A DNA stretch of 64,000 nucleotides. Source: Octopus vulgaris (lineage: Eukaryota). Shown here in pieces: positions 20,950 to 58,026 of this stretch. Made by a program: the position numbers and the translations under genes. Location: assembly GCA_951406725.2 (NCBI GenBank), contig OX597818.1, positions 144,522,001-144,586,000 of the forward strand, read 5' to 3'. How positions within the stretch are numbered: position 1 is the stretch's first letter; each line of letters begins with the position of its first letter. Under the pieces are notes generated by a model. The model was not told the origin of the DNA, did not search any database, and worked only from the letters and a program-made list of their open reading frames with translations.

Positions 20950-21076
20950 GCCCTGCTTGCAGCTCAGAACCGGTTGCGGAGTCATATCAAGGGTTTCTAT
21001 TTTAATTTGGGATTTTCTGGAAAATATTATCAAAAAGGTACACCAGAAGAGAACTTGGGTGATCGTCTCTTAGTAG
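20950..21076 (+). CDS. NDST: NDST coding exon 2 (ALLAAQNRLRSHIKGFYFNLGFSGKYYQKGTPEENLGDRLLV)
   Basis: Acceptor ...tcatttcAG at 20949 in phase 0 continues exon 1; FNLGFSGK motif; donor G|GTTGGT at 21077 in phase 1. Confidence 0.93.
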
Positions 21077-33060: not shown

Positions 33061-33853
33061 ATTATGATTTAATCTGTTTTTCTATGTTGACATTGATATA
33101 ATTCAGTTTTTAAATTCAACTATATATTATTCTAAAAGCTTTTAATTGGTAGTGTACAGTATCTCTTGCAACTTGCAACAGTGTTGTGTTTTTGGATAAG
33201 ACACCTGACTATACTTGCTATTATGGTAGAGTGTTCAGGTTAAACATATGTAAGATGTGATACCAGCAAGGGGTGGGTGGGAAAAAACAGTTATATTAAC
33301 TTTCCCCAAATTTCAAATTACTAAACATACAGCCATAGAAAAACTTTTAATCTTTTTCTTTTCTATTCTTTATCATAAATGCATACGCATCTTTATTTTC
33401 ACAACCCATGAATAATTCAAATTAATAGATTTTAAGATATATTTTATTAGGGCTAGATATATGAGCAGAATATTCAAACATAAGAGATTATAAAACATCT
33501 TGTACAAATGAAATGAAATTTGCTTTTTATAACATTTTCCTTTATTTTTTTTATAAATGATTTTCTTCTATCAGTATTTTCATTCAAAAGAAAAAAAAGA
33601 AAAATATAAAAAAATGGAATTGGCATGTGTTTTATAATTATCAACTTTTTCATTTGATTAGTTATTGGATTTTTATGTGAGAACTTTATTCATATATTTT
33701 TTTCTTATAATTGTGTGACGAGTATGAAAATATTGAATTTAAAAAAAATTATATTTGAAAGAAAAACAAAAAATTATGTGTAATTTTTTAATGAAATTAT
33801 ATTGATCTATTTGCATGTTGGTTTTTTTTTCTATTAACTTGATTGTCTTGCAG

Positions 33854-33966
33854 AAATGAGAGATAAATTTTGGTGGTTTCCTCACATGTGGCACCATGAG
33901 CAGCCACATAAATTTCAACTGCCAGCCTTGGAGCGAGGAATGTTGCAGAATTATCACTTTGCACAG
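33854..33966 (+). CDS. NDST: NDST exon 3A ((E)MRDKFWWFPHMWHHEQPHKFQLPALERGMLQNYHFAQ)
   Basis: Acceptor ...gtcttgcAG at 33853 (phase 1), TTAAC branch-like site at 33834-33838, FWWFPHMW.H.QPH motif, donor CAG|GTAGAT at 33967 (phase 0); 113 nt. Confidence 0.92.
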
Positions 33967-34242
33967 GTAGATCCTTTGTTTTGGAGAGCGGATTCCTGCT
34001 TTAAATCATACCTGGATCTCTTTGTCTGCAACCATTTAAAAAGAAAAAAAAAAAAAATGCTTTTAACACATGACAGATTTTAAAAAACGGAAAATATCCT
34101 TGTGTTTATCAACTAGAGATTAATAATCAATAGCATGAAAAGTTTTTTAAAAATCGCTTTTATTTTTTTTACCTTGCTAAACAAGAGATAAAGACAGTCA
34201 TCCACACATTCGCGTAGTTGTAATAAATATACATATATACAC

Positions 34243-34274
<32 letters not shown>

Positions 34275-36682
34275 ATAAAAGATAAAGCAAATAAACTATT
34301 AAATAAATAGGAACCAAATTTGATAGATATCATTAAAATATGTATATCTACTTCACTATTTCGAGTTTTAGGTAAATTTCATAAAACGTAGTCTAAAATA
34401 ATTAGTATAGAAAAATTTTTGAGCTGTTTTAGTGAAAGAAGCTAATCTTTGCTCAGGTTTTACTAATAATAGAATTCTGAAAAAAAAGTATTAAATGCAA
34501 TTAATTGGACTTTATGTATGTTTCTAAAATCACATTTCTATTGTAAGGAATTTTATTTTAATTTGATTCTTAGCATAAAACTTCTGTTTAAAATTTTGAC
34601 AGCCATGATTCAATAAACCAACTTAACCCTTCCCATTAATTAATAAATAATAATAATAATTTTATCTATAGTTTCTTTTTAAATAATGGGTGGAGGATGT
34701 ATTTTTTGTTTTAGCAAACCCATATTAAAATTAATGTTGTTTAAATCAAAGCATACATACAAAATTGCTATCAAATAACAGCAGTACACATTTATCTTGT
34801 ATAAATTTAGTGAGGACCCAAGAAATAATATATTAGCTGGGTTTTATCTTTTTGTCATTATTTACAAAGTTTTCTGTGATCAGTCTATGCCAAATCTCAA
34901 TTAATTGGTCAATATTTGTTGTCATGTTAAGTAGAACTAGTTTCATTCAAGGTTGTTGAATAAAAGTAAATACAAATGTATATAATTTGTTGCTTTCTAC
35001 TCTGTCAGTTTTGGAAGAAGTCTTAGTAAGTAGTACAAGTCAGATGATACTTGCTGCCGGAAATAGTCCAACTTCTTTTTCCTTTCTCTTGTTACTTTTT
35101 TTTTTCTTAGCTAAGCAGCTGGAAAGAATATTTTACATGGTTTTTAACCCAATAAATGTTTCTAGTGGTTTCTGTCTGGTTATATTTAACTGCTTTCTTT
35201 AATGTGGTTGTAACAACACATAGTGGCTTTGTAATGCTTCTCTAGTAATATATATTTTATCTTTTTCACAACACATTTCTTTTCAATGTTAAACAGAAGT
35301 TTCTGTCATTTTAAAATGTATTCATTGATCTATGCTTAAAGAAATAGATTAAAAAAAGTGATTGGTAATTTTATGGGGTTGGGGAAAACATTGATATGCA
35401 AAAGTTTCTATCATTTTAAAATGTATTCTGTGATCTATATTTAAGGTAATAGATCTAAGTTTCACATAACTTCTGTCAAATTACTTTCATGTTTGCTATT
35501 AAAGTTGTTGAATCTATTTCCAACCAAAGTTTTTCTCTCTCTGTAAAAGACAGGCTGTATAAGATACATGTCAGGTGTATGCTATTGTTGGTCAGTTACA
35601 ATGTCATAATTGGAGAGGAATGAGATATGTACAATCTATCTATAAGTTAGGAATGTACAAATTTACAAGAAAGGTTGAGTGTAAGGGGTGAGAAAGTACT
35701 TAAGCATCTGATAAGTGCAAGAAAGATGACTGTACAAGCTTGGACATCTAAAACAAATGAAAAATACATGCTGAATGAAAGTGTATCCAGAGTTGATTGT
35801 GGAAGGTAGATGACATAGTAAATTAAAAGGAGCTATAGCTTAAGAAGTATGTATAAAAAGAAAAAAAAACAACCTGTTTATGTCTTTACAGTTATTCCCT
35901 GATTATACCATAGCTGTTCATGAACCAGTATCTTGGAGTTTGATTCATCCAAACACCTATCTTCTTCAAGGATTTTAAAGATTTTCTGTCTTAATAATAA
36001 TAATAATTATAATAATAATAATAATGGTTTAAAATTTTTCCACAATGGCAGTAATTTGGGGAGCAGTGATGAGTTGATTACATCAACCCCAGTGTTTAAC
36101 TTGTACTTATTTTATTGATCCCGAACGGATGAAAGGTAAAGTCAACCTCAGCAGAATTTGAACTCAGAACATTTCGCCCTGCATGCTAATGATTCTGCCA
36201 GCTCACTGCTTTAATAATAATAATAATTATAATAATGTACATTTCTATGCATGCCTGTATGGTTACAAATTTTATTTCTTAACCACGGATCGTTTGGTTC
36301 AATTCTAAGGCACAGTACCTTGGGCAGGTTTCATCTAACATAGTCCTGAGTTGACTAATGTTTTCTATGTGTCTAAGTGTGTGTCAGTGTTCAGTGTTAA
36401 TAAAAAAATTGTTGTATGAATGAAATATTGTAGCAAGTCCTGTATTGGTTGCCTACTCTTACACTTGGTTGATTTTATCTTTTGTTCTCCTGAGGTTGAT
36501 AGAATGAATACTAAAGAAAGTATTGAAGTAGATATAGCCAACTAAAACCCTCATAAAGCTGTTCCTCAGCTTGGTCATAGTTCATTGGCTGAAATCTCTT
36601 TCCTTTAGATCTATTGTTGATGTCAGTTCTTCCTGCAAAATACCTGAACTAATAAAGACCTCCATCACCATATTCTCAACTT

Positions 36683-36885
36683 AGGCGAAATGCGTCGCCG
36701 TATTTCGTCTGTCGTTATGTTCCGAGTTCAAATTCCGCCGAGGTTGACTTTGCCTTTCATCCTTTCAGGGTCGATAAATTAAGTACCAGTTACACACTGG
36801 GGGGGTCGATGTAATCAACTTAATCCCTTTGTCTGTCATTGTTTGTCCCTTCTATGTTTAGACCCTTGTGGGTTGTAAAGAAATA
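36683..36885 (+). mobile_element. tRNA-derived SINE (same family as 20217), 5' truncated
   Basis: gagttcaaattccgccgaggttgactttgcctttcatcc...aagtaccagtt...gtcgatgtaatc. Confidence 0.8.
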
Positions 36886-37499
36886 TATTATCAAAAGAGT
36901 TAAATAGGAGTGTTGTTCAACTTCATGTCAGTCCTCGTTAAGTAGACTTCTGATCAAAAGGGTTCCACCTGTGAGCATCCTGTCTTTTATTCAGGTATTA
37001 ATTATCTAAGTACTAAGTTCACTAATGTGCTCTGAAATTTCTTTTTTAAAATGGTAAAGGTGTAATTTAAAGGAAATTTGACATCTATTTCAAGCAAGTC
37101 AAGAAACCATAGTAAGGCTCCCTTGTCAGGTCAGCATTTTATATTTCTAGAAGCTACTACAGCTTATTCTCTAATTCTTTTGTATTTTATGTTTTTTCAA
37201 AACACAACAAATTGCATCCTTTCCGTTTTTTTAATCATATACGGAATAGTATTGCTGATTACCATCACTGAATTGGGTTTTTGCTTATTGCTCTCAGAGA
37301 AAAGATTAATTCTGTTTCCCTGGTGTTAGTCGTTGGACTATGGCCATGCTGGGGCACCACCTTCCAGGGTTTTAGGTTGATCATTTTGATTTGAGTACTT
37401 ACTTCAGTCTGCTACTTATTTTGTTGGTCCCTATTTATCAAACCACAAACTCATGGAACATAAAGAAGCACTTGTGTAAATCTGAACACAACCTCATTC

Positions 37500-37514
37500 T
37501 CTCTCTCTTGTGTA

Positions 37515-37597
<83 letters not shown>

Positions 37598-37690
37598 CAC
37601 TCACACACTCTCTCTCTCTCTACACACACACACTCTCTCTCTCCCCCTCTTGTACACACACACACACACACACAAACTTTCTCTCTCTCC
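37500..37690. repeat. Compound (CA)n/(CT)n microsatellite
   Basis: Alternating CA and CT runs. Confidence 0.95.
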
Positions 37691-40600
37691 CACCATTTTG
37701 GCTGGATATTGGTTAAATAAATTTCTGGTTGAAAAATAAATTATTGGCTATTAAGTCAATATATAATTATTGCTAGTAAATATAATGCTTTTTCTTGTCA
37801 CCATTTCATCTTGTATGTAATAGGTTCCTTTGTTTCCCAAATATATTTCATGTATTTTGTATGGTTTACAGTGTGGCTAACTTAGTGTTAAATTTGGCTC
37901 ATCAAAGTGTTAATGACAAGAGGGAGAGGTGTATGTTATTCCATTTCTTATTTAACATTATTGTGCTTTTTTTTTTCATTAAGATGTTACTTGGGTTTTA
38001 TAACCTTCAATCTTGGTTTTTATAACCTTGAAACTTCTATGTTTAAGCAAGAATTTTTAAGCATTTTGCCAATTCTTATGACAAAATATTGAAGCATGAA
38101 ATCGTGAGCCTATAAGCATAGAAAGTGTTATCTCAACCACTTAGTTAATGCAGATGCACATAGTTTCTATCTAAAAATAAACAACCATTAGTTGTCAATG
38201 GAATCTTGTTTAGATCTAAAAGTGAATTTCTAGATTTGAAATTCCCCTTTTTTTTTTCTGAATTTCTTGTGGCAACCTCAACCAACTGCTATTCTGCAGT
38301 CAAATGTTTGAATTCTTCATGTATTGTGTGCGTATGTGTAAACTGTATTTGCTAATATATAGTATGCACTTGTGTATAGTATACATCTGTCATTATAGAC
38401 AATGAAATCCTAGAAAAAATGCCTTTCATGTACACGTTTTGTAAGCAGTGCACAAAACTGTGTATCAAAGAGATTATGTGCGCATGTAATTGTGTACGAA
38501 ATTTGTTAGCTAAAACAGTGTAGAAATTATCATATTTTGTACTTTGCTGTCGTTGTTATATGTCATTATATGCTTCATGGCAAATATATTAGTCAGATTC
38601 ACTTTTTTATGTTCATTGTTTAATTGTGAAATCTACCAATGCCTAGAATATGTAGGAAAGTAAGTATTTTTTTAATGTTAAAAATGGTTTAGGTTTTAGA
38701 TTTCATTTTTAACTGTTAACTAAGGCATGATAATTGAATTACAGTAGTGGTATGTAACTGATTTGAGTAGTGATTGCTATGAAATTTTCTTCATAGATGG
38801 AATAGTGAGGGGGTTCTTTTCCTGAACAGTGGCCAGCCAGCTATGAAACATGTCAAAGCAATTACTGTATTGTCTTTATTTTCTTGTGTGCTAAGGGAAC
38901 AAGGTGTATTCATATTTGTTTACTTTCTACTGTGTTAGCATTGTGTACTGTAGTCTAACCGCATTAAATTATATTTACTTGATTATGTTTATAAAATATT
39001 GATTCTTTTATTATGTTTGTAATAAAATATTGATTTTCCTTGTTTCTTTTGAAGATATTAATTACTATTTTGTCATAATTTTTGAAATGTCTTATATCAA
39101 GTTGTCGACTTTGTCATTTTCTTCTTCCCATTAAGAACAAACTTCAATTTTTCACAGTCTCTTTATTAACTGATAGATCTGATATAAGTTGGTTAAGGAT
39201 TAAGAAGCTTTAGGATTTTCCAAGAGGAAGCCTCACTGTCAATCAATATCAGTTTCAGGATACTTACAATTCCATGTTATTTGTTGCTGTTTAACCCCAG
39301 GTCGGCTCTGATCAAGCAGCGAACCTTACAATCAAAGGTGTTCCAATAATGCATATCCTGTCCTTTTGTAGATCTATCATTAATTGTTACATGATTTTTG
39401 GAGGGAATTGGCAGCACTTCTTAAAGAGTATTGATAACAGAGGATGCTGTTACACAGGCAATGGAGATTTGTGACTCCTCCCACCTATACGACACATGTG
39501 TCTTCATAAATGTGGTATTTCATTGTTGAAGACTTGTGTTAACCTCACCTGCCATGAAAGGTTTGCTGTCTATTTGTGGCTTGAAATAGTTCAAAATTTG
39601 ACTTTTGCTGGATATTTCTATGATTATAGTATTGTTCAGTGTATCCTTTCCTTTTTTTAACATGGTCAAATGCACTATGAATGAAATTTGACTGTTATTT
39701 GTATTAGGTTAAGTGAGCATTGGCACTCATTCTATGTTATTTTGTATCCTGCCAATAAAACATAATTTTTTAATTATTCCCTATTTAATAAAATATGGCA
39801 GCCAAATTATGTTGACAAGAGAGAGCATTGGACACAATACAGATATCGCCAAAATACTGATATTAGACTTGTCAGATTTTAAAATAATTTATTTTTATCA
39901 TGCTGGCAAATGAAGAATATATGCTAAAGAAAGAAGAATTTTCTGAATTGTTATTGAATCAAGATTATTTCTGATGATTGACTAATGTAAAACTAACATT
40001 TGATAGTGCTCTCCCCATCCCTCCCTCTCTATTTCTTTCCATGCTCTATCTCTCTCCCCTCCCCCTCTCTTTTCCCCTGTCCCATCTCTATCTCTCTCTC
40101 TTTGCCCTATCTCATCTCCCCCTTCTCCCTCTCTTCCACATTTCTCTCATTTGTTAACATCAGATCATGCTTTTGAATAGGCTTTCGCTATTTTTGTTGT
40201 TGCTTATTTAGGAGTACATTATGCAAACTGTGGTATCTCATCTGCCATGTGTCTGTGTACTAGAAAATAATTTACATTTTAGAGTTGATTCTTATAGGGT
40301 ATTTTAATACACTCTGTACGGGCTCAAATGTATCTTGAAGCAATACTGGATTATTTGGAGATTATTTCATTTAGGCTATCAGTTGCTGTCAAATAAATAA
40401 AGTCAGTATTCGGCTTATTCTAATTGCATGTTCCTAGTGTGAAGTAAATACCATTTTAGTATCCAAGCAACCAGCATTTATATTTAGTTTGTTACATAAT
40501 TCATATATAAATTTCTGAATTCTTTGAGTTTTCTGGTTGTGTTGCAACATGTAATTTCTATTTTTCAGTTAAAAAAACAAAAACAAAACAATGGTTTAAC

Positions 40601-43600
40601 AGATTTGCTGTTTTCCCAACATCTTGAATCTAAACACACGATTTACTTATAACAGATTTTTCTCCTTAAATATTTGTTTTTAATTTCCCTTTAGAATCCT
40701 TAGTCATTTTCATTTTCATAATCAAATTACATTGGGTGTATGTGTATTCACACAAACATACTAACACACACACAAACACATACATGTGTGCACATACACA
40801 CATTATGCAATTTTTTATAACTATTAAATATCTATTAAAATGATAATCAGATGAAAAGCTGACTGTGTAACTGTATTTGATTTTTGAATAATAATATCAA
40901 GCCTGTCCATTTTAGAATGCTGAGAGTTTTAAGGAAATCTTTAAAAGTTAAAAAAGAATTTTAAATTAAGGGCAATGGTAGTGTTATTTTATTGCTCTAC
41001 TACATGTTTACAAAATGTTATTTATATTTCTAATTACACGAAAGGAGTGAGTGGAAAGTAGGTGGGGAGAAAAAGATGATGGGGACTTGCAGACAAACTG
41101 AGAGACAAGTACTAAACAGGAAATGGGACCAATTAATAATGCCAGCATCAGAAAAAATGACTTTGAAATGGTAATCATTAAGTAACCAATAGAAAGCAAA
41201 ACTGCTCTTAAAAATTATTACTTCTTCCTCCTATGCAATTGCTAGAAAAATATTTATACTATTTCCTCTTTGCTACTTCATCAGGATATTACTTTATATA
41301 TATTTCTTTTAATTCAATTTTGCAAGTAAATTGTTATTAGTGATAATAATAATATCAAAAATATTTATTATATTTATTAGGAAGGCAGTGCTTGGCAGAA
41401 TTAGTAGTAATGAACTAAATTTATGAGAACATTTTATTACATTTTGAGTTTAAATACCATCAAGTTTCATTTTGCTTTTCATTCCTACAGGATCAATGAA
41501 ATTGTGTCAGTGAATAGGATGGTCTGTATGGCTTCAGAAGCTAACTTTGAATCCTTAATTATTTGGTCCCAATCATTCTGCACAACACTTCAGCCATAGC
41601 CTTAGATTGACCAATAGCTTGTGAGGGGAATTTGATAGATGGTTAAGTGATAAAAATAATTGAGATTGTGGAATATTGGGGTTAATTACACTGATTAGTC
41701 TTTCTCTACATTTGTGGCTTTGTTAGCAACATTAGAAATTATTCTATTATTGACATTTTTGCTTAACTAAAGACTAGGTCTTTGGATTCATTTGTATCCT
41801 ATTGTTTAGCAAGAACATTAATTTCTTTAATTCCCTCTTTTAACTGCTTTTTAAGTGCTATTGTTTCTTTTGGTGATGGTGGTGGAGGTTTTGCCAAAAA
41901 GGTAATGAAAGAAAATTAATAATCAGATTAATGTTAATGCATATTTATTTCCAGTTAACTTTTTGTATATGTTTATGTATTAACTATGCTAACAACAACA
42001 ACAACTCAACTAATGGGTTTTCATGCAGATGGGGTGTCTTGGAGTTATTCTTCTATCAGTTCTATTTCTCTGTACCAACATGTGTACAATGATGTATGTA
42101 CATTTAATTTGAAAGTCTCCTGTTATTACTTTAGTGTTGAAGTCTATAGTTTGCTGCTAAGGTCATAAGACTGAAATTTGTATGAAGTTGTCACCTATAC
42201 TTTCTGAAACAATCCAGATAATATTAATCATTAATATATTTTTTTGTACCATTTATTTATTTCTGGTTAGGTTTTTTTTAATTTTGAAGTTTCCTACATT
42301 AAGGCTTTATATATTTAACAGGTCTTAAACAATGAGAAACAAATTGATTTCCCTTCATCCAGAAATATGGCAAACCAAAATTTATAAATTAGATGAATAC
42401 ATTCCAAAGTTTGCTGTCATGTAGATAGCAAATGTGTACCTGTACATATGTATGTGTGCAGGTGAACTCACACATATGTATGTGTGCAGGTGAACTCACA
42501 CGCAACATTGGGAGGAGACCAAGTTAACTATTAAATCCTCTTGCCGCTTATTTTCTGTATAAATCTGTTCCAGTGTTGCTTTATTTAGTGATGTTGCAGA
42601 TAAGAAAGCTAATAAATACAATCACATCTACACCTATCTATTGTGTAAACACAGGCTTGCCAAAGAACTGGCTACATCTGGAATGGTGCTTATTATTACT
42701 AATAATAAGCTGAATATAAATATTTTATGTTGAAGATCTGACCTAGTTTGTGAACTGATGTAAAATGTCTGGAAGGAAGATTAGGGGGAAAAAGAAAAAA
42801 AAAGACGTGATCTTGAATTCATGCTACTATATGTAGTTAAAGAGTCAGATGAATACATTTTAACTGTTTGACTTGCCCTTAATCCATCCTTCAGTTATCT
42901 ATGTTCAAACCCTGACAGGATCAGTTTTACCTTTTATCTAAATGGGAATGAGAAAGTAAAACTTTAGATATTTCAGTTGTTGGTTTTTAGCTTTGCATCA
43001 GCCCTGATTGAGTAAACCTGTTAAGAGAGGTGTTCCAGCCATGACATTCTGTTTTACTTTCACCTTAGACATTATCCAATGTAATTTTAAACATTTTTTT
43101 AAAGCTGGTGAGGTGTAGTCTGAGGCATGTTTGGCTGCTGTTTCTATTAGGCTGAGTAACCACATGTAAATCTTCCTTACTGGCTTGTAAGTACTGGTGT
43201 TGATTCAAATGACAGTCATCTAGTTATGAAATTTATGGCTTTGTACCAATGTAAGAAATCATCATTGATGGGATATTATTACATGAATTTTATGCTCTGA
43301 CTTTAAATCCTGATGCAGTCAATATTTCCTTTTAATATTACAGTATCAATACAGTATAGTACTAGTCAAACACTCTAGGGTTAATATGATCCATTTTACC
43401 CTTTTCCTAATGTTGTTGTCAGTTGCCAGGGAACGAAATTTGCTTAGGGAGTGCAAACCCAGGCCCAAAATTTTTTATGTTTATATTAATACAAATGCAG
43501 GTATAACAATAATTTTTATTATCATGAGGATTGACTGAAATGCTCATAGGCTGAGTAAGACACTCATGGAATGTGACCAAATGAAGTTCATTTTTTAGCA

Positions 43601-43614
43601 TAATTCTTCTAACT

Positions 43615-44010
43615 GTCTACATACCTTCCATGAGTGTTGCAGTGCTTGGATTGCATTGGTGAAAAAAGTCATCTACAGCAGATAAGACGTCATCATTACG
43701 GCAAAACTGGTGCCCAGCCAATAGTTTTTTCATGTTAAGAAACTGACGATAGTCAGATGGAACCAAATCACTAAAATAGAAAGGATGATCAACCAGTTCA
43801 AAGTCAGTCAAGCACAGCAGCAATTGAAACCAAAGACTCGTGTGCTGAAGCATTGTTCTAATAAAACAAGACTCCTTTCATCAGTTTTTCTGGGTGTTTG
43901 GTCTTGATAGCCTTTTGTAACTACCTTAGCAAGTTGGCATAGAACTCTCCAGAACCCTCCATCGATGGTGTGATCACTTTGAAGACAGTTATTAAACCCA
44001 ATGCCTTTTG
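43615..44010 (-). pseudogene. Decayed mariner transposase fragment
   Basis: FELVDHPFYFSDLVPSDY..F.NMKK.LAG.QF..DDV.SAV resembles the mariner HPPYSPDLAPSDY motif; upstream KGVLFY*NNASAH resembles GVLFHQDNAPAH; stops and frameshifts present. Confidence 0.85.
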
Positions 44011-44019
44011 CATTTCAAA

Positions 44020-44345
44020 AAAACTGAGGTTTCAGGTTTGAGTTTGGGTTCTGTCTGAACTGGTCTGATCCAGTTTCAATGGATCTGATCTGGTTTGGAC
44101 TGGTCTTATCCAGTTTGGACCAGTTAAGGTTTACTGTTTGATGAAAATGTTTGATAAGATGGTTGATGAAAATATTTGATGTTTGAAGATGCTTTATGAA
44201 AATGTTTAATGGATGTGACTGGTGTGATTTGGTTTTGACCGGTTTGATCTGGTTTGGACTGGTGTGATCTGCATTGGACCAGTCTGATATGGTTTGGACC
44301 AATCTGATCTAGTTTGGATCAGTTAGGGTTTGTTTACATTCCTGT
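44020..44345. repeat. Low-complexity short-period repeat (tggtc/tgatc/tggac) next to the mariner remnant
   Basis: tgatctggtttggactggt occurs near 44086 and 44246 within pentamer-like periodicity. Confidence 0.55.
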
Positions 44346-44469
44346 TTCTGGACAATTAAGCAATAAGAGAATAACAGAATATGCAGCGTATTGAAACTAG
44401 TAAAACAATGCTTAGTTTTTATTTACTTCAATTTACCAATTTAGTAGGTTTTGATTGTTCTGAAGTATA

Positions 44470-44630
44470 GGCGCAAGCGTGGCTGTGTGGGAAGAAGTTT
44501 TCCTTCCCAGCCACATGGTTCTGGGTTCAGTCCCATTGTGTGGAACCTTGGGCAAGTATCTTCAAATATAGCCTTGGGACAGCCAAAGCCTTGTGAGTGG
44601 ATTTGGCAGACAGAAACTGAAAGAAACTTG

Positions 44631-44692
<62 letters not shown>

Positions 44693-44852
44693 ATCTGTTT
44701 GTCTTCCATAGCTGGTGTTGTGTTTGCATCCCTGTAACTTAGTGGTTCAGCAATAAGTATCAGGCTTAAAAAAAAAAGTATGGGAGTCAATTCATTCAAC
44801 TAAAATTCTTCAGCATGGTCGCAGTCTGCTGAGTGAAACAGGTAAGAGAATA
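44470..44852 (+). mobile_element. tRNA-derived SINE, near full length, with internal (GT)n
   Basis: ggcgcaagcgtggctgtgtgg...gggttcagtccc head, ccaaagccttgtgagtggatttgg core, cagcatggtcgcagtc..tgaaac tail; decayed copies near 640, 10265, 15515, 18040, 45580 and 61650. Confidence 0.8.
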
Positions 44853-45448
44853 AGTCTGAACAATCAGAGAATATGTGATTTTTTTTCCCTTTTTTTTTTT
44901 TAAAAAAATATCCTAAATGGCTATCATAAGCCATTGTATTTAATAAAATGACCTTTAAGGAGAAGAGACAACCTGTAATTATATAGCTGAAGTTACCTTG
45001 TGTGTAGAAATCTGCTCATGTTTCATAGGATTTAAAAACAAAGGTAGTGATGACATTTAAAGCCATTTGCTTGTAATTAACATTGTTGTAATTAGGGACT
45101 GTTACTGGGGGTTGATTATTCCTCATGAGAAGCTGAAAATGAGGAAATCAGATTAGTATTCCATGTGGATGAAAGGATAATAATAGTATAAAAAAAACAA
45201 AAAAACTTGTTTGGTGTTTTAAGCCAAGAAGGTGGGAATCAAGGGATTCAGGGAGATCAATTAGTGTGTTTATCTGATGGGGAGTTGGTGGTGACACAAA
45301 AGAAGCTAACCACTAATTATGTATAATTAAGTTGAAAACTGATTAGTCATGCCACTTAAAATTAGTATATAGAACATATTATTTATTTTAACAAACTCTG
45401 TATTTGTGTAGATGTGTGAGTTTGTGTATATATGTGTGTGTATGTATG

Positions 45449-45482
<34 letters not shown>

Positions 45483-46020
45483 TTCATGTACACATACAGA
45501 CATATACACACATGTACTTATATATGTGTGTGTGTGCATATGAGATTAAAAAAAATTTTTTTAGCTAAGTTGTTAATATTAGTTTGCAGTCATAATATCT
45601 AGAGTTCAGTCCCAGGATGTGGCATTTTGACAAGTGACTTTTTACTATAGCCTCAGGTCAATCCAAGCCATATGAATAGGACAGAGGAAGTGGAAATTAT
45701 GCTGAAGCCAATCAGATGGACTGTACCTATGATTCAAATTTATCATGTTGTCTGATATTAATTCTTCCTGAGAATCACATTAAGTACACAATGTGTGAGA
45801 TGCTGAACCACTTATATCAGTATTCAGTAAATAGGTAGTTCATTTGATAAAGCAGTTGGAAATCTCATTGTCAAAACTGGCACTGATCAATTTACTTTTA
45901 ATTTAATTTGTATATGGTTAATAGATCCATCCATCATAAAGTACTAGAAAATTTGACTCTATCTTAATTACAAGCCAACTTTTTTTCCAGTTTGGGTTGC
46001 TAATGAATTATTGACAAGAG

Positions 46021-46065
<45 letters not shown>

Positions 46066-47120
46066 ATTTGTGCATACACAGGAAAGGAGGAGAGACAGGT
46101 GGAGCAGAGAATATAACATTTCATGTGAAGGATCCCATTTAAGCATTGCTATACGAGGTCTGATTTGTTAGGTGATGATTGCCACTGTTAAAGCTAGTTG
46201 TTTCTGTGTCTAATAAGTCTTTGCTATTCAATAATTGATGAATAAAGATATGTCTTAATTCCGATGTGGCTGAAAATTTCAGTAGTATTAGTAAAATAGA
46301 AAACATTACCCAAAGCACTGAATTAATAAATGAAACTTATGCTAAATAAATATAAAATCTCAGCACTTAGCATGCAAAAACATTTCTTATGTGATAGTTT
46401 AATTGTAGCTTACTGTGTTCAAAACAAAACACTCAATCAGGTATTGATTAACAGATTTATAACAGAATAAAATAAATTTCTGCATATCTACTTCAATGAA
46501 ATTCCCTATTGATGTTAGCTATTCTTTTAATAAATAGTTTAAAATTTGTTTTCTATTGGTTTTATCAGACTTACATTTTTAAAGGATAGAAATTTTGGGG
46601 AATCAAACTTCTTACCACATAGTGGCCACACCTGTGCTTATATTCAGATTTTAAAGATTACTGCAACCATGCAATAACTAGTATAAACCTTATTGCAAAA
46701 ACAATAACCAGAAATGAGCAGAGCCCATCTTATTTCATTGTGTAATAATTTCTTTATAATTTTCTCTCAGTGAAATGAATAATATTACTTTTCATTTAAA
46801 ATCTAATAACAAAACAGCCTAGGATTACACATGGTAAACAAAATGTTACTGGATATTTTACCTTTGAATTTCTGCTCAGCCTGCTCCCCAAAATTAATAT
46901 AAAATGCTATTAAATATATATAGAAACTCATAACCAAAGTTAATAAAAGTGAAATTGACCCAAATTGTTTGTGTTGCATGTTTGTTTCACATATATACAT
47001 ACATAAAGAGCCAGTTGTTTGTGCCGACCAAAGCCTTGTGAGTGGATTTGGTTGATGGGAACTGAAAGAGGCCCATCGAGCGCGTGTGTGTACAGATATA
47101 TATATATATATATATATATA

Positions 47121-47890
47121 TCATCATCTATCATCATCGTCATCATTTAACGTCCGCTTTCCATGCTGGCATGGGTTGGACGATTTGACTGAAGACTGGC
47201 GAACCAGATGGCTGCATCAGGCTCTAATCTGATCTGGCAGAGTTTCTACAGCTGGATGCCCTTCCTAATGCCAACCACTCCGAGAGTGTAGTGGGTGCTT
47301 TTACATGTCATTGGCATAAGGGCCAGTCAGGCGGTACTGGCAATGGCCATGCTCAAAAGGTGTTTTTTTACGTGCCACCTGCACAAGTGCCAGTCCAACA
47401 CACATCCAGCCCTGTTAAGAATACTCCTGATGCATTGGGCGATATGATATTCTTGAGAAGACATGTTGAGTCAAGTAAAACCAATATCATAGCTGGGGCT
47501 GGTGCCCCTTGACTGGCTCCTGTGCCGATGGCATGTAAAAAGGACCATCCAAGTGTGTTTGTTTCCAGGCCCACCATACTGGCTCTAGTGCAGTGGCATG
47601 TAAAAAGCACCAGGATGCCAGTACCCGCTACTGGCTCCTGTGTCATTGGCACGTAAAAAGCACCATCTGAATGTGATCATTGTCAGGCCCATCTTACTGG
47701 CCCCCTGTGCCGGTGGCACGTAAAATGCATCCACTACACTCTTGAAGTGGTTGGCATTAGGAAGGGTATCCAGCTGCAGAAACTCTGCCAGATCAGATGG
47801 AGCCTGGTGCAGCCGTAGGCTCTCCAGACCTCAGTCAAACCGTCCAACCCATGCCAGCTTGGAAAATGGACGTTAATCAATGATGATGAT
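47121..47890. mobile_element. Two (GAT)n-tailed retroposon copies in inverted orientation, nested in a SINE
   Basis: 47121-47310 and 47713-47890 are reverse-complementary; host SINE halves at about 47020-47095 and 47895-48110. Confidence 0.8.
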
Positions 47891-50800
47891 ATATAATATG
47901 TGTGTTTATCCCCATAACCACTTGACAACCGGTGTTGGTGTGTTTACATCCCTCTTAGTGGTTTAGCAAAAGAGACCAATAGAATAAGTACTAAGCTTAA
48001 AAAAGAACACAAAAAATAAATACTGGGGTAAATTCATTTGACTAAAAGTTCTGCAAGGTGGTGCCCCAGCATGGCCGCAGTCTGGTGACTGAAACAAGTA
48101 AAAGATATAAAAAACAAAAATGATTGACATACATTATTGAAATAGTTTCTATTTTATAGCATAAGCACAGAGATAGCTTTGTGGTTAAGAAGGTCACTTC
48201 ACATTTATGAAATGTCAGGTACTGTCCCATTCCATGGAACCAAGTTTTTTCTAGTCTAGTTCAAGGTTGACTAATGCCTTGTGAGTCTATTGGGTTGTAA
48301 GCCTGTTGAGTTAGTGTATGTGAATGTTGATATTTTATCTGTTATCATTTGACCGAAATGATGGTTAACATTCCTTATTGACATTATGACGGGTTACCCT
48401 ACACCTTTGAACACCTGTAGAACAAAAAATAAAATAAAATTTTAAAAATCCTTGAAAAGCAGGTGAAGGTGGATGATAGAAAAAAGATACAGCTGTAAAA
48501 TCCTGCCTCAAAATCAATTGTCATCCAAGCCATGTAAACAAGGAAAAATAGATGTTAAACAAATGAACAAGCTTTGTTATACTCGACCTAATGCTAACCC
48601 TCAGTTGTGGTTTGGGAATGTTATCTAAACTGATTTCAATATGTAGAATCCCTGAACAATGGCAGGTTTTGAACTCCTGTTTATCTGGTCAATATTTTTG
48701 AGCACTTGGTTGTTATCATTCTGATATCCTGGACAACATTATTTGAAGGACCGACTTAATGTAGAACCATATAACTATTCAATGCAGTTACATTTATATG
48801 TTATGTGGCCTGTACTGTATTCCAAAGACTAAAAACAAATGTTGTTTTTAATCTAGGCCAGTTGTAATTGAACTTAGTCTATGAACTGTGGTGGGTTTTT
48901 TTCCCCCAATACATAATAAATATACCTAGGACTACTGTAACTAACATATCTTTATTTATTTAATTTTTTTAAGGACTAGAGTATAATCCATTGTTGCTAA
49001 TATTTGCAGGTTGTGTGACCTTGTATAGGGCCCTTGATATTTCAAAATAATTTTTCAGTAATCTCCATTCATAGTTCCTTTGTTTACCCTGTTCTCTCTT
49101 ATTATAAATCTTTTATAATTCTATAATTCTTAAATATGGAAGCAGCAGCAGGAGGGATTTTATTGCTGTATCTGTTGTTGGCTGTTCTCAGTTTTGAAGC
49201 AAATCTAGGGCATGGAAGCAACACAAATCATTGAAAAATAATTCAATACCCTGCAGATGAGTTTAAGAGATTTACTTTGAACATATGTGGGTACGGAACC
49301 ATGGGGTGCTACAAAATTGTCAGGGTTAGTGTTTCAATTGGAACAGAGATAAACACACACACATACACACACACACACAATCCCCCTCCCCCAGAAAAAT
49401 ATCAAAAAATACCATGACAGGTTGAGATATATGACTTAGTGTCATGCCAGTAAAATAAAAAGAAAAAAGCTTAAACAAATACTGGTACAAGTTTTCATCA
49501 CATGTTCCTCCAGTCTATGATAGTTTATGTGAATGACTGCTTTAGAATAATGTTCTGCTTTCAATCCTAAACATTATTTCTCCTTTTCCAGTTATCACAG
49601 TGAATTTTTCCAGTTCTGTAATTTTAGTTTTCACCAGTTTGCATTTTATACATTTTTACATTGTTTCATCTCACCCAGCCTTAGTAGGAATATAAAATTA
49701 CAGGTTTACAAGTGACTTTCTTTCTTTAGATATTCTATACTTATTCCATTGCTTTCCCTTGTCTGTGTATTCTAGTTTTCTCTCTATTTTTGTTTTCATC
49801 TAAATTTCTGTTAACATCTGCTTTTGATATTTAATCCATCTGTGACTGGAGTTTTCAACTGACTTGCCATTCTGTCTACACAATCCTGCACCATTCGCAG
49901 TTGTGAAGCTTTAATCTTTTCCCTACAAATCCTATTTGAAGCCTCCTCTGGTTTTTATTGCTCAAAATTTCTATTTTGAAATGTTTGTGTTTAAATTAAA
50001 ATCTCTCTTCATAATTTTCTTGCAAAGATCTTAAATGAAAAAAAAAAAAAAAATTATGTGAGTACTTTTCATCGTTAAAACACCAGTTTAATTAGATATT
50101 TTATTAGTTCCCATTGAATAGTTGATTTTGAAAGTTACTTCATATAAACAAGTTTATTTCATTAAAGGGTGAAAAAATAATCGGTTTTTTTTTTCTTTGT
50201 TCTGTAGCATCTGATATTGTTAGTGGTATAACACAATAATGGTAATATTGTATGTGGTATAACACAGAAGGTGACTCTACCATATGATATAACACAGTAA
50301 TATTGATGACAATATTGGATAATGCAATAATTGATATTTATTATTTGATATAACACTAGTGATAATATTTTATGGCATAGCAGCAATGATGACAGTCTTG
50401 TTTTTACGGCATAACAACAGTGATGACAATATTATGTATAGTATATTAATAACGGTGACAATAATGGTATAACACAGTAGTACTGAACACATCATAGTTT
50501 TTTTGAGTATGAAACCATGAAAAATTATTTGATTCTGTTTTGTGATTTTGTTTTCCATATAATTTATGTCAGCTTCTGTGTAATAGAGTAATTTAGAATC
50601 CAACAACCAGCGGTGTTGATGGTAGTTGTGGATGCTGGGGTGAGGTTAGAAATATCTCATTCATTTGTCCTTTTTATAGTAAAGTCTGCTCATTTCTTGT
50701 AAGGAAATGTTAATTACAAGTAAACTTAGTCGGGAGTATATTATTCTCTCTTTAGCTTTTGTTAGCAAATTGAAATGCAGATTTCTTTAGAATTCTTTTT

Positions 50801-51282
50801 TTTCACTTTTGATATTTCTAAGCAATTACCAAATTTTGTTTGCTTTTGGAAGACTAAATTAAATTTGCTATAATCATTTGTTTGTCTTTGATTCTTTTAT
50901 ATTTATTCTTAGTCTGTTATTTCCTGACATTTATCATTCTAAGTGGTACATGCATCAAAGCCTCCCCCTCCCCTCACTCTCAGACACATGCATAAACAAT
51001 TTTCTTTCTTTGATGCCTCTGTTATCATTTTATTCATTTTGCTTACAAAATATTCCATTTGTTGCCTTATTTTATTAAAAAAAAAAACATTTCTTCAATT
51101 ACGAGTAATCAATAGTTTCTTTGAGTTGGAAATGTAAAATCAATATTAATTTTTTTTGTTTAATTGCACATTAAATTGAATTACTTTCTATGAGAAATCT
51201 AATGGCATTTTTTTTCTGTGATGTAGAAGTAAGAAAGGTTTATTATATTTCCTGTAAGAATGCTGGAATAACTATCAACAAC

Positions 51283-51330
<48 letters not shown>

Positions 51331-53352
51331 CTGGGAGGATATTTGCAAAATATTATATTTCTCCAAAACTTAATGAGATCAAAATACTACGTTGGATTAA
51401 AAAATGATATTCAATTTGCTTCTTATGCTCAGGTAAGAATCAAACATGGATGCCTTAATGATCATGTGGAATGAACCAAAAGAAAATAAATAAATAAATG
51501 AAATTTTTTTAATTATAAGTTATTTGCATTAGCACACATAGAAGAATCCCTTGAAATAATCAGCTAAAATGCTGAGTAATCTTAATACCTTACACTCCTA
51601 GCTCACATGTTTTAATATGTTTTAGCTAAATATTTTAGGAATTCTAAACTTATAGTAAAATAGTTATTTTGATGCTTGTATCATCCTGAGGTCAAATCTT
51701 TCCAAAATAAATCAATCTAGATTTCTTATCCAGTTAACTTGCTGATACATCTAGCAGGCTGGATTTCAAACAAAATTTATGTTGTTTAGTTCCTGGTTCC
51801 TCAGCCTTTATTTGAGTAAATCTATGATTAAAGACATTCATAGCCATGACCAGACATTTTTTTCCCCTTGGCATTCTGCATCCTGGACTACATTCTTATG
51901 TGTCCTTTTCAAAAAATGGTGGAATGTCATTGGAGTGAAATTTGGTTGCCATTTCTAGCAGATTGAGTTACCTTGTAGATGCTCTCTCATTGACTCTTCG
52001 TCATATAGTTAGAGTTCTAGTTGTGACCATCCTCTCTGTATGGGAGCAACTGTTTATGTCATGAAATATTTTGTAAGCTATTTTTAACATGAGATGGTTT
52101 TTTTCTTTAGCTAAACATCAAACTGCATCTGGTGGTGAGGTTCTAGCTTAGGAGTTTTGGAGAGTATGGAGGTAACCCTTCGTCACCATTACTCCTCAGT
52201 TTGCTCTGACCCAAGGTGGTAGTATTTGTCAAGGGCCTCAGTTATTTGCCAAGTTGCAGATAGCCCTGTGGTTAAGTATACAGGGATCAGAGAAAGGCTG
52301 ACCTCCAGCTATACCACACAAACTCACTGGTGTATGGACATGCCCTGATGTCATGTGAGCCAGTCATTTAACTTGAGAGTTAAACAGACCCTGTGCCTCA
52401 AAGGTAAGCTTGGGAGTGTATTAGACTAGCAAAACAAAGTGTAAATAAACTGGCAAAATATAATGGGGAACTACTGCTTAATCTCCTCCCCCCACCAAAA
52501 AAAAAATCAGGAATCTTCAGACTTTGGCATGAATGTCTGTGATTGCTAATGCCTGGTGAGCATAGTGTTTGGAGAGAAAAAGAGAGAGAAGGGGGTTTCT
52601 TTCTGAATCTTTTTCTTTATATCTTTGTCTTGTTCTTCGACATTTTTCTCTGAATGAATTATCTGTTTTGTAAACCAACAGCTTACATTGTTACCAGGAT
52701 GTTAGAGTCAAGAACTCAACATGAAGGCCATTTTAAATATGTGTAGTATCAATAAATATATGTAGTCACATTTATTTGTATTTAGTCTTCCATAGTTAGA
52801 TCACAAGACACCTTTTGGTTGGCTTGGAATAAGGATCAAACCCATTAACTAGTTTTGTTATTGTTATGACTCATCAGGATTCACTACCTTTTCCCTCTCA
52901 AGTTGTTGATGGGGATAAGTAACAGAAGGCAACTTATTAAAATGGAAACAAAAACACAGCTCATTTGGAACAACTCATTTACATATGATACAAGGTTGCC
53001 AGCTGATATTAATTTATTTAAGTCCCATTACAACATATAAACAGGTTTTCAGGTGGAAGCTAACATATGTTGAAAACTCCGGATAAGTTACTTCTATTAT
53101 TACACTTGTCTAAAGTCTGACTCAACTCTAATTAAACAAACTTATAATCAAAATGTGTTCCAGCTGTGATCACCCCAACTGTTTTGTATATCAGGGATAT
53201 CCAGTATGTCCTTTTATTAAGACAGCAGCAAAATAAATTTGGCTGCTATTTTTAGCAGGTCAAGCAATCACATAAAGGCTTCTACTTTGGTTCTTCATCT
53301 GATGTGAAAACCTGTGGTTTCCTGCTGAACAATTCCTAATAAATTCATTTAA

Positions 53353-53560
53353 CCCTTTAGCCATATCCGGTCAAAATATACGACCTGTTTTATGTACAAA
53401 TCAACCAGATCTGACCTCTCACACTGACCCTACAATATCATTCTAGAAAAAGCAATCGGCATCACTGAAATCTTACAACTATGAAATAATGTATGATTAA
53501 TTCAAAATTGTCTAAATAAATAAACATTGCATTTGACAGAGTAATTTGAATACTGAAGGG
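53353..53560. mobile_element. piggyBac-like MITE, family 1
   Basis: TTAA|CCCTTTAG ... CTGAAGGG|TTAA; internal similarity to 17289. Confidence 0.8.
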
Positions 53561-56500
53561 TTAAAACCATTCAGCTTGTCAAGTAGAATTTGTATATATG
53601 TTAAAGTGGGGTTTAAAAGTCAGCCAAGTGGTTATTGTATCCCACATTGAGCTGACAGGGCAGAGCTTGTAGCAGGTTGTGACCTTTAACATAGCTAAGT
53701 ATTGTATTTCGCCCTGCATTGATAATAATAGAACACTTGAACTACTGGGTTTTTTTACCATAGACATTTTATTTGTATTGTCTTTTAAGGATTAACCAAA
53801 ATGAATATATTATATTTTCAACAATTGGATGCATTTCCTAGTAGACCCCCCCACACACACTCACAAACACTTATCAACATCATTTTAACATCTATATTTC
53901 CAAGATTGTATGTGTAAGACAAAAGTTGCTGAAGCAGGTTTTTCTATGTCTGGATGTTCTTTCTTTCACCAATCTTTACTTGATTCCAAGCTAGGAAATC
54001 CACTCATAAAGGCATTGATCATCCCAGGTTATAGTAGTAGATACTTGCCCAAAGTGCTATGCATTGTGACTGAACCTGAAACCACATGATTGGGGAAATG
54101 AACTTTTTAAACATACAGCTATGTTTCTATGGCTTTCTTCCCAAACAAGAAACCTGATTTATTTCAGTTGATAAAGTCTTTTAGCTACCAAGTTGGTAGA
54201 CAAGCCTATGATTTAATGGCAGTCTTGTAAGTTAGCTTTTGTGTGTGGAGGTTGATGACTGTGACAACTTAAAGGTTTATAACTGGATGGAATTGATTTT
54301 AGCCTTTTATCAATCCAGTCTTGGTTAGAGAAAGCTTCATTGGAGTCAGCTCTGTTTTTGGTCCATTGCTGCTGCATAACTACTATGTCTGACATTGTTC
54401 TGCCAATAAAGTGACAGGGTAATGTGCTAAATTACTTTGTAAATTGTTAAACTACGGTCGTATGTAGAAATCCGAAGACTTTCTTAGTTTAATGTATTTA
54501 AAGTAACAGTTGGATAGATTGGAGTGTGCTGGTTCAACATTTAGTATATCTACCAAAATATATTTTGCTACAAGATAGTAGTGCCTGTGTATGCATTTGG
54601 AACTTTTTGATATGTAATTAGACCAGTGAAAGTAGCTCATGAAACCATGATCTAGATTAAATATTTTAATTAGTCAATTTATCAATATAGACACACACAA
54701 CAGACACTATTTATTTCCCAACTATACATGTTTAGGAATCTAAAACCAAATGCCTATCACAGGAACCTTCTCAGGTTCATGGTACCACACATGAATATGT
54801 GTGCAACACACACATACTAAATATGTGTTGATGTACTGAATGTTGTTTGCAAAAACTTCTCACTGAATTAAAATTTACTTGTATATTTGTTTGTGTGTGT
54901 ATATATATATATAAAGCAGAGTGTCTGTTCTAGTGCATCTCCCTTGCCATTCTCTGGGGTAACACCTTTTCCATTTTGTCTGCTGGAACCATGAGGCAGT
55001 CTGATAAACCTTTTTAGATATTTTTCTGTTGTGAGGAAGAGCAATAAAACAAACACATTTCACCCATACATTTTCCTGAAATTCACTTGTGATACATTGT
55101 ATTATTTGGATGTTAGCTTCTTGTAGTTACCCTTACAATACTTTCACATAGAATGATTTACAAAAAATATAGACAATCTCGACTCTGGAAATTGAAATTT
55201 GCAATGTGAAAAATGTATATTTGATATATATTCTGAGCATTAACTAACTAGAATGAGTTTAGAGAAACAGTGGTGTAACTTGACCTGACTAAATCTGTTA
55301 TTTGGACAGTATTTTGTCTCATCTAATCTTTTTATTCTGGGTTCAAATATTTTCAGGTTAGCTTTCTTTTATATCTATCAATCTGTGATCAAAATTATGG
55401 TATAATGGGTTAGTTCGGTTGTCTATTTTCCCGCCTTTGCAGAAGAGAGTCATCCTTATGCGTATGTAGTCAACGTAATTCACCATTAGTATTCTTTTAG
55501 CCTTTTGTTATTGTTTAATTGTGAATCAGCTCACACTCAGTTAAACTTTCGATCAAAGGTATTCTCACTCTATCCATCCTATCTTTGTTATGTTCATGGC
55601 TTTGACTAAATGGTTTTTTCCTCTTTATATACTGAGTTCAGATCTTACCAAGGTGGATTTTGATCCCTTTCTCCTCTGGATGGGCGAAGGGAGGGTGTTT
55701 CAATGAAATATCACAATTATACTAAATCCCCTGCCACCACCTTATAGCAGTACTTCTATCTTTCCTTATCTACAAAAGTTAACCTTTAGCCTGGTCAAAT
55801 ACAAATATTGTGCAGTTGAGTGACGTTCTTAAGAAACCATGTCTGTCTTTCTGTTTTTGATTTCCACTTAAGTTATTTCTCTGTCTTTCATAATTCTAAA
55901 ATATTGTCTTATTGTCAGTTACAATTATGCTGATGTCTAATTTTGCTAGTATTTTACAAAGGTAAGTTTGATACTTCTGTTATTAGAGAAGAAAAACCAT
56001 TTGCAATGTTTGTGTCTTTTGTTTCCCTCCAAAAAACATCGTCCATATAAATAGAGCAGTGAAGATTGAAAGTTGATGGCTGTGTCTGTTTGCCAAGAAC
56101 TTAAGATACCCAGACTAATAATAATAATGATATGTAATGTTAGTGGGGTTATGGATAGGATACTTCATTACTTGATTGATACTGATCATAATATTGACTC
56201 TGGAAATACAAAAAGGAAAGTTGAACCTTATGACATCAGAAATCTTAACATAAAGCCATTTAACAAAATACTACAAAATATTTTGCCTGGTGCTATTACA
56301 ATTCTCTAATAATAATAATTTCTTAGCCACATGTATAATTCTGTAGGAGGTAGAGGTTTGCTAACTCTGTTATGCAACAAATTATGAACCAGAAATGGGG
56401 TGAGGGAGCCACATAGGATAACTCAGAACACCTCACACTGTAGTACACCTAAGGCACGGACTATCTCCCTTTTAGTTATTATAAGCTCACTTAACCACTC

Positions 56501-57910
56501 TCATCCACCTTCCATAAAATTTACTGGAAATCAGACATTTTCTTTGTACTTTCTCTTTCTACATTTAGTAGTACTTCAAGAAGTTAATGAGGGCTTATCC
56601 TGAGGGGAAACACTCTGTCCTCAAACCTTTCAACTGCTTTAATATGTGTGAACCTACAGTAGTTTAAAGCGATGAATTAGCAGTCTTAAGAATGTCAATT
56701 ATACTGCCTCAGGTACTCATTTCAACTTTCTGTACTCTTGAGTTCAAACCTTTCTGAGGTCACTTTTGTCTTTTTATCCTTTCAGATCCAATAACAAAAA
56801 AAGTACTGACCCAGGGTGGTGGATTGGATTGGATTGGTGGTACTTTAAGAACTTCAAACCAGGACAACTTGTGGTATTTATTCTAGTTCTTTGCATTCTG
56901 AGTTCAAATCTCACCATGACTTACTAGGATAGTAGACTAAATCTCACACCTGGTTTAATACCACCACTTGGCACCTTAAATATCTTTTAGCAGAGTCCAC
57001 ACTGTTGCAAGCATCCAGGTTAGGTCTCTAATTTGAAGATGCTGCTTGCTTGCTTTCCCACCAATCTCAGAAGCCTTGTAATGGGTCATTGGCACAGCCT
57101 TTCTTTCTGACTAATATAGATATATATATAAGATAATCAATAGAATGGGGTGTACATGAAACTTAATATACTTAAGAGAGAAATAGTTGCAACATTCATA
57201 GCTTTATTAAAGATATCAGTGATATAAGGAAAATCAAATTGCTAATACCAACAATTGATTATCTAATAAATTTTCAATTAAAAAGCGGAAAAAAATTAGA
57301 TTGTAAATTTAATGTAATCTATAAGGAAACATTGGATTGGCAGAATTGTATGACCATCAGACAAAATGCCTTATATTTCATTATGGTTCTTTACATTCTG
57401 AGTTCAAATCCTGTTGAGGTCAACTTTGCCTTTCATCTTACTGGAATCAATCTAATCAATTATAACTGTCCCCTAAATATGAGGTCTTGTGCCTTTATTA
57501 GAAATCAACACATAATGTATAAAGTCTTCATGGCTGGTTTATCTAATATCAGATTTAAGATATTTTTTATAAGTATAAAAAATAAATTTAAAAATACACT
57601 TATTGCTTAAAGTTACATGACATTAAGACAGTTTGTATTTTCAAATTTGATTTACAAACTAAAAACTTGTAAAAATATATCCACTTTGTAGCTGCAGCAA
57701 CTACCAAAAGGAAATAACATACCTTACAAATGAAATGAATTCAACTTAAAACAAATTGCAAAAATTGTACAATTTTCAAATTTTAGCCACAACGGAATAT
57801 AGGTATACTTTTGAGTTTTCCAGTGTGTGAAGCTACCATCATTACAATTATAATACAAAAAATACTGCCTCTGCCATAGTTCTCTATTCTCACTACAATA
57901 CTGCTTCCAG

Positions 57911-58026
57911 CTAATTCTGACAAGTTTTGGTGGTTTGGTCACACATGGATGCATACGCAGGCCCATTTTCATGAAAATGCCAGCAGTTTAGAAGAGGACA
58001 TGAGTCTAAATAAAGAATTTGCTCAG
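57911..58026 (+). CDS. NDST: NDST exon 3B, alternative paralogous exon ((A)NSDKFWWFGHTWMHTQAHFHENASSLEEDMSLNKEFAQ)
   Basis: Acceptor ...ctgcttccAG at 57910 (phase 1), CTCAC branch-like site at 57889-57893, open frame, donor CAG|GTAATT at 58027 (phase 0); 116 nt; 18 of 39 aligned residues identical to 3A. Not in the ORF track. Confidence 0.88.

Follow-up and report, generated by a model that had tools for sequence, protein, structure and literature searches.

Invertebrates are usually treated as single-NDST animals. The N-sulfated clusters laid down by NDST guide every later modification of heparan sulfate, and in human NDST1 the deacetylase metal is bound by H389, H393 and D320, with D319 as the base and H529 as the acid, alanine mutants being inactive (PMC10864358). 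A second body of work concerns homologous exclusive exons, whose variable residues cluster near functional sites; only nine events touching catalytic residues are given in one survey (PMC7954323). The two subjects meet in a window of 64,000 nucleotides of the Octopus vulgaris genome (positions 144,522,001-144,586,000 of OX597818.1), which forms part of the octopus NDST gene. Within it, the exon encoding the two metal-binding histidines is present in two copies, here called exons 3A and 3B. The octopus protein has the three domains of human NDST1 (PDB 8CCY, 8CD0, 8CHS, 9F6Z; PMC10864358), about 50% identity to it and the same residues D319, D320, H389, H393 and H529.

Two copies of exon 3 in one NDST gene

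The first long open reading frame of the window is 100% identical to the annotated O. vulgaris NDST protein P0001, which was mapped onto the window plus 200 kb of adjoining sequence (264 kb in total). The mapping gives one NDST gene, its coding part spread over about 98 kb, in which each coding exon is present once and only exon 3 is doubled. Nine exons lie downstream of 3B. Searched against the 2.8-Gb genome, exon 2 found one match and exon 3A two genuine ones, both counts being lower bounds; a third match to 3A is noise (E 7.7, containing stops). A third or decayed copy of exon 3 was found neither in the 264 kb nor in the genome search, again a lower bound. The whole-genome search, with the same limit, gave no second exon 2, and no other NDST gene was found. 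A preliminary description of this DNA had seen no second exon 1 or 2 between the copies, and the single exon 2 in the genome and the single copy of every other coding exon in the 264 kb agree with it.

The coordinates, lengths, splice sites, phases and open frames of the two exons were re-read from the sequence and are all as first described: both have AG/GT sites, start in phase 1 and end in phase 0 at FAQ before the GT. Alignment also reproduces the 18 identical residues among 39, leaving 21 columns that differ, and 62 of the 114 aligned bases are identical. Version A has four basic and four acidic residues, and version B two basic and six acidic. Positions 71-107 of Pfam PF12062 are matched by both exons (35.5 bits for 3A and 43.7 for 3B, with a cut-off of 25). 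Against a profile of 36 non-cephalopod segments, 3A scores 56.5 bits and 3B 58.8, while the same profile gives at most 6.4 bits elsewhere in the 264 kb and 6.5 in a reversed control. As these scores are far above background, the likeness of 3A and 3B is not due to chance.

Among the 18 common residues, 13 use the same codon and five use synonymous pairs (GAT/GAC, AAA/AAG, TTG/TTA, GAG/GAA and GCA/GCT). These five pairs had been listed as a sign of purifying selection; the pairs are real, but five codons make weak evidence, and a stronger argument is that each exon is conserved between species. Between Octopus and Sepia, identity is 34/38 for 3A and 26/39 for 3B, compared with 36/42 and 54/63 for the flanking exons, and Octopus 3B is identical to that of Argonauta at 39 of 39 residues.

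Exon 2 joined to 3A and exon 4 is open and agrees letter for letter with database protein P0075; exon 2 joined to 3B and exon 4 is likewise open and agrees with P0001. When both copies are included through the main sites, a premature TAG is reached at 57989-57991, and splicing from the main exon 2 donor directly to exon 4 leads to a stop five bases into exon 4. The claim that joint inclusion and joint skipping both shift the frame thus stands for the main sites, but not without exception, as in-frame escapes would be open through a candidate AG at 57923-57924 (joint inclusion) and a candidate donor at 21072/21073 (joint skipping).

Each copy is found in proteins. 3A is present in P0075, P0070, P0073 and P0074, and 3B in P0001, P0069, P0071 and P0072. 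O. vulgaris, O. bimaculoides and O. sinensis each have a pair of isoforms (885 and 884 residues) that differ only in these 21 columns, and 3B is carried by full-length proteins of four octopods and the cuttlefish. RefSeq alternative models rest on transcript alignments. The Sepia cluster also holds five full-length Logan proteins of 886-887 amino acids, one of them A-only (three contigs) and four B-only (12 contigs), and none of the five with both. As none of their contigs is longer than 5,029 nt, they are taken to represent spliced messages. 3A and 3B are almost certainly real alternative exons, both of them expressed. On the sequence record they are tandem-duplicated, mutually exclusive exons of one NDST gene, each found alone in full-length products, as was first proposed: both forms exist as isoforms, and the frames and stops at the main sites agree.

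As to how exclusivity is achieved, steric exclusion, which needs less than 50 nt between donor and branch point, is ruled out by the 23,944-nt spacing. Incompatibility of U2 and U12 sites is ruled out by the donors GTTGGT, GTAGAT and GTAATT, which match the U1 consensus at 6, 7 and 8 of nine positions. A search for intron pairing of the docking and selector kind known from Dscam, made in Octopus DNA alone, found only interspersed repeats, 70-90% identical, that pair across the introns. Frameshift followed by decay is a common mode and likely fits the exclusivity seen here; exon lengths that are no multiple of three are reported for 377 of 629 human clusters of such exons (PMC5740500).

A family resembling short interspersed elements occurs in both orientations at 26901-27603, 32890-33062, 47126-47394 and 47614-47890, with more copies in L004 and L005. 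It includes a close inverted pair (47133-47394 and 47630-47890, 80% identical), and at 27159-27603 it has a tandem unit of 164 nt. Inverted pairs of this family could loop out either exon, or could serve as editing substrates. Another inverted pair, 36072-36172 and 36717-36820, is 86% identical over 104 nt and lies 2 kb downstream of 3A. Both 3A and 3B are flanked by inverted interspersed repeats.

Features of the octopus NDST gene around exon 3 (window coordinates unless stated otherwise).
Feature	Position	Strand	Remarks
First coding exon (aa 1-335)	4369..5373	+	100% identical to P0001; donor GTGAGT
Exon 2, 127 nt	20950..21076	+	constitutive; ends in phase 1; donor TAG GTTGGT
Alternative GT, 4 nt upstream of exon 2 donor	21073..21074	+	candidate site; joined to exon 4, in-frame loss of both histidines
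Exon 3A, 113 nt	33854..33966	+	H388 at 33883, H392 at 33895 (human H389/H393); loop P-H-M-W-H-H-E-Q-P-H-K; without N-glycosylation sequon
Intron between copies, 23,944 nt	33967..57910	+	no further exon copy; scattered interspersed repeats in both orientations
Exon 3B, 116 nt	57911..58026	+	H388 at 57940, H392 at 57952; loop G-H-T-W-M-H-T-Q-A-H-F
Cryptic AG, 14 nt into 3B	57923..57924	+	candidate site; 3A plus shortened 3B would stay in frame
N-glycosylation sequon N400-A-S (human N401)	57976-57984	+	in exon 3B
Exon 4	L006:1308-1493		outside the window, 27 kb past 3B

The first coding exon encodes a predicted membrane anchor helix, the N-terminal domain and the beginning of the deacetylase domain, and it matches PF25119 and PF12062. 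The equivalents of human D319/D320 (D318/D319 in octopus) are encoded at 5320-5325, by alignment to PDB 8cd0. The three-domain chain is confirmed by PF25119 with PF12062, by PF00685 (sulfotransferase; precomputed on P0001) and by the fold match to human NDST1. One model, P0070 (877 amino acids), has an upstream exon (4062-4160) spliced to an acceptor at 4531 within the first coding exon. This start exchanges the first 54 residues, and hence the predicted membrane anchor; it may be a genuine soluble form or a modelling artefact.

The metal-binding loop in the two versions

The segment encoded by exon 3 aligns to residues ~379-417 of human NDST1, and it does supply the metal-binding histidines, as had been stated, since human H389/H393 (PMC10864358) align here. 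The equivalents of H389, H393, Q395 and H397 are identical in 3A and 3B. Those of D319/D320 are in exon 1 and that of H529 is in a later exon, both exons being common to the isoforms, and the catalytic set D319, D320, H389, H393 and H529 is present in both isoforms (P0075 aligned to 8cd0; 3B read directly). To say, as the preliminary description did, that the exons swap the active site is thus an overstatement. Judged by these alignments, the active site is trimmed, not swapped, by the choice of exon.

The differences come close to the histidines. At human positions 388, 390, 392, 394, 396 and 398, version A has P, M, H, E, P and K, and version B has G, T, M, T, A and F. The T at position 390 is the rarer form, being found in five of 183 segments. 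The sequon matching human N401, where glycan density is seen (PMC10864358), is kept in 144 of the 183 distinct segments; in all three mollusc pairs B has it and A does not. The core of the segment hardly varies among 11 vertebrate proteins.

The predicted models of the two isoforms agree in the strand at 384-387, in the loop and in the helix that begins at 400/401, with a predicted local distance difference test (pLDDT) score of 80-96 over this block and means of 84.3 and 84.6, but these folds lean on a common alignment, and no functional difference is readable from them. The A model matches the fold of human NDST1 (TMt 0.93-0.94) and also that of Agd3 (6nwz, E 1.4e-18).

Distribution and age of the exon pair

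A total of 30 NDST protein clusters was examined, the counts covering the members listed (15 for large clusters). Species outside Octopus were judged from proteins, and exon boundaries there are inferred, not taken from DNA. Two versions of the segment are present in eight clusters: octopod, cuttlefish, Liolophura, Lineus, Lingula, Owenia and two paralog clusters of Limulus and Tachypleus. Isoforms that differ in the segment and nowhere else come in pairs in the three Octopus species, Sepia, the chiton Liolophura, the nemertean Lineus and the brachiopod Lingula, and in two paralogs of the horseshoe crabs Tachypleus and Limulus. In the annelid Owenia, one model (P0095) has both copies in tandem and another has the second copy alone; a Sepia model (P0181) has A followed by B in tandem. 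A search with the two-copy region of Owenia gave one two-copy protein among 16 candidates. The pair is thus not special to the octopus lineage, as had first been supposed, since it is also found in cuttlefish, chiton, brachiopod, nemertean, annelid and horseshoe crabs.

Among the members listed, single-form clusters include Haliotis, Patella, scallops, Mytilus, unionids, decapods, Daphnia, insects, spiders, a scorpion and Branchiostoma. The six single forms from gastropods and bivalves are A-like, and those of spiders and insects resemble B.

Some details of individual groups may be added. In Owenia (P0095 and P0008), the two-copy model enters the second copy three residues late, in agreement with the position of the cryptic AG of octopus 3B, and in this copy A replaces the otherwise near-invariant H397. 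Limulus has three NDST paralogs (P0040, P0107/P0108 and P0031/P0112), two with the exon pair and the third listed with a B-like form only. The malacostracan proteins P0182, P0183, P0207 and P0204 have single forms with G-H-T-Q-P-H-K/L, mostly without the N401 sequon, like one of the Owenia copies; the malacostracan copy is possibly the opposite of that in insects and spiders.

The duplication does not look recent, as the 2-kb flanks of 3A share no extended homology with those of 3B. Octopus and chiton share 27 of 39 residues between their A forms and 18 between their B forms, compared with 15 and 16 in the cross pairs. A tree of 39 columns and 21 rows groups the A forms of Octopus, Sepia and chiton (95/91), the B forms of Octopus and Sepia (98/93) and the A forms of both Limulus paralogs (91/91); the horseshoe-crab A copies fall with deuterostomes. 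The second copy of Owenia joins the mollusc A forms (86/89), and the A and B labels assigned to this animal may be reversed. In approximately unbiased (AU) tests, only an Octopus-only duplication is rejected, at p-AU 0.0175, one of nine tests, a value which fails Bonferroni correction. A cephalopod-only origin (0.136) and a mollusc-only origin (0.268) are not rejected. Provided that the A copies are orthologous, the duplication would go back at least to the divergence of chitons from cephalopods, and the sequences compared suggest that it is probably older than the mollusc crown. A single protostome origin of the pair is only slightly favoured.

Interpretation and comparison with known systems

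How the choice of exon might work can be set out as follows. Exon 2 would be spliced to the acceptor of either 3A or 3B, under cell-type control by splicing factors. Messages with both exons or with neither carry an early stop and would likely be cleared by nonsense-mediated decay, and it is this clearance that is proposed to enforce exclusivity. The chosen exon would then supply the barrel around the metal with one of its strand-loop-helix units, 3A bringing H, E and K at human positions 392, 394 and 398 and no glycan site, and 3B bringing M, T and F and keeping the N401 sequon. The likely outcome is a shift in deacetylation rate or substrate preference, and with it in the length and spacing of N-sulfated domains. 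We consider it likely, from the sequences compared, that A and B are functionally different enzymes, and probable, with slightly less confidence, that exon choice leaves the metal ligands constant but alters the way in which heparan-sulfate chains are engaged by the deacetylase. That the difference lies mainly in substrate engagement has a little better than an even chance.

A wider proposal, which we put forward tentatively and which is rather doubtful as a whole, is that an ancestral protostome duplication created a two-way splice switch at the metal loop, giving two enzymes that write cell-type-specific N-sulfation patterns, a splice-controlled heparan-sulfate code from a single gene. The switch would have been retained in cephalopods, chitons, brachiopods, nemerteans, annelids and horseshoe crabs. 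Opposite losses elsewhere would have left the A-like form in gastropods and bivalves and the B-like form in insects and spiders, and because of these losses the switch would be hidden from model organisms.

Several observations weigh against the reading of an old switch with a function at the metal loop. Single forms are found in 22 of the 30 clusters, among the members listed, and many animals seem from their proteins to do without the switch, although a gap in annotation need not mean absence from the genome. Groups of all A and of all B copies are not recovered in the tree (four changes each), and its deeper forks are unsupported. The A and B labels were assigned by visual judgement of the very sequences tested, a circumstance that helps the all-A and all-B tests. 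One origin for all A (p-AU 0.58) or for all B (0.52) goes unrejected, and so does a separate origin in horseshoe crabs (0.525). In NodB-type barrels, substrate specificity is linked to loops at the ends of the strands (PMC10967932), but for one face of the human cleft the loops 319-332, 486-512 and 528-538 are named, and this segment is not among them in the available text of PMC10864358. As the named loops leave the segment out, substrate contact by the variable residues stays conjectural.

The swap could instead act mainly through the N401 glycan and the outer face of the helix, in folding, stability, Golgi residence or partner binding. The distribution of the sequon in the three mollusc pairs and the glycan density at human N401 fit this idea, as does the fact that 11 of the 21 differing columns come after H397, in the loop and helix. 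It is nevertheless improbable: the sequon difference is found in none of the five non-mollusc pairs (Lingula, Owenia and the two Limulus pairs have it in both copies, and Lineus in neither), and residues 388, 390, 392, 394 and 396 beside the metal histidines differ too, and are kept between Octopus and Sepia except for 392 in B. Alternatively, one isoform might be a weak or dead deacetylase that keeps its sulfotransferase, serving as a brake or modifier in the manner of human NDST4 or the dominant-negative NDST1B. Mammalian NDSTs vary in activity ratio and an inactive splice form reduces sulfation (PMC9132247), and 3B has the rarer T at 390 and the faster divergence. Both metal histidines, Q395 and H397 are, however, present in both copies, and H-T-x-x-H resembles the usual NodB motif 2; A-like single forms in gastropods and bivalves and B-like ones in spiders and insects apparently work alone, and we regard this idea as quite unlikely.

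No better placed is the idea that the isoforms are equivalent, the pair persisting by redundancy or as a splicing-coupled decay device that sets the level of enzyme. The many single-form clusters are compatible with it, as are the stops that follow co-inclusion and double skipping, but A and B have each kept a distinct sequence in octopods and cuttlefish (A in chiton as well), and with redundancy alone one copy would be expected to decay. That 3B is a pseudo-exon, an assembly artefact or a piece of another NDST paralog, the last having been named at the outset as a possible refutation, is hardly credible and largely refuted. There is a single gene with one exon 2 match in the genome and other coding exons in single copy in the 264 kb, and 3B stands in full-length proteins of four octopods and cuttlefish, unchanged in Argonauta. 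A change in substrate engagement is thus the explanation that we prefer.

The A and B isoforms, 21 columns apart around the metal site, form a natural pair for studying what determines deacetylation rate and domain length, which the human structures leave open, no substrate complex being resolved in the available text of PMC10864358. The pair could also inform the choice of enzyme for heparin biosynthesis.

The pair had been thought undescribed, and the titles and abstract beginnings of the literature searched hold no description of it, subscription journals and supplements lying outside the scope. Neither NDST nor sfl is named in the available main text of two surveys of exclusive exons (PMC7954323 and PMC5740500), their supplementary tables likewise lying outside the scope. 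On the other hand, the products described here and their counterparts are already annotated in RefSeq and GenBank as isoforms X1 and X2 (XP_014790254/5, XP_029636122/3 and CAI9723640/1, with further counterparts XP_064601752/62, XP_013416453/5 and XP_076368390/1), these invertebrate isoforms stemming from automatic annotation only. This kind of splicing is ordinary and well known, and together with the existing annotation this limits the surprise.

Among deacetylases, the octopus loop resembles motif 2 of the CE4/NodB and CE18 (Agd3) enzymes, with a pair of histidines on the loop after strand 3, completed by the Asp of motif 1. NDST forms its own Pfam family, PF12062, NodB-like rather than CE4, with H-x3-H spacing and M or T after the first His. 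With regard to human NDST1, it is octopus 3B that matches the N401 sequon. The vertebrate proteins examined have one form of the segment, and vertebrates diversify through four genes, unlike the octopus with its exon switch; the human splice form described in PMC9132247 skips exon 12, in the sulfotransferase domain, whereas the octopus switch is in the deacetylase domain. Vertebrate paralogs differ in activity ratios (same source) yet do not diverge in this segment, and the analogy with four vertebrate genes, drawn in the preliminary description, is a loose one: because the segment core is nearly invariant in the 11 vertebrate proteins, the octopus switch is no copy of the vertebrate paralog strategy. 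A close likeness is to PKM1/PKM2 and to fly CRMP and CG42249 (PMC7954323), where the exons are likewise homologous, similar in length, of the same phases and used one per message, with their variable residues near a functional site. From CRMP, in which a zinc ligand is lost, the octopus pair differs in that the exon carries two of the three metal ligands and keeps them in both versions.

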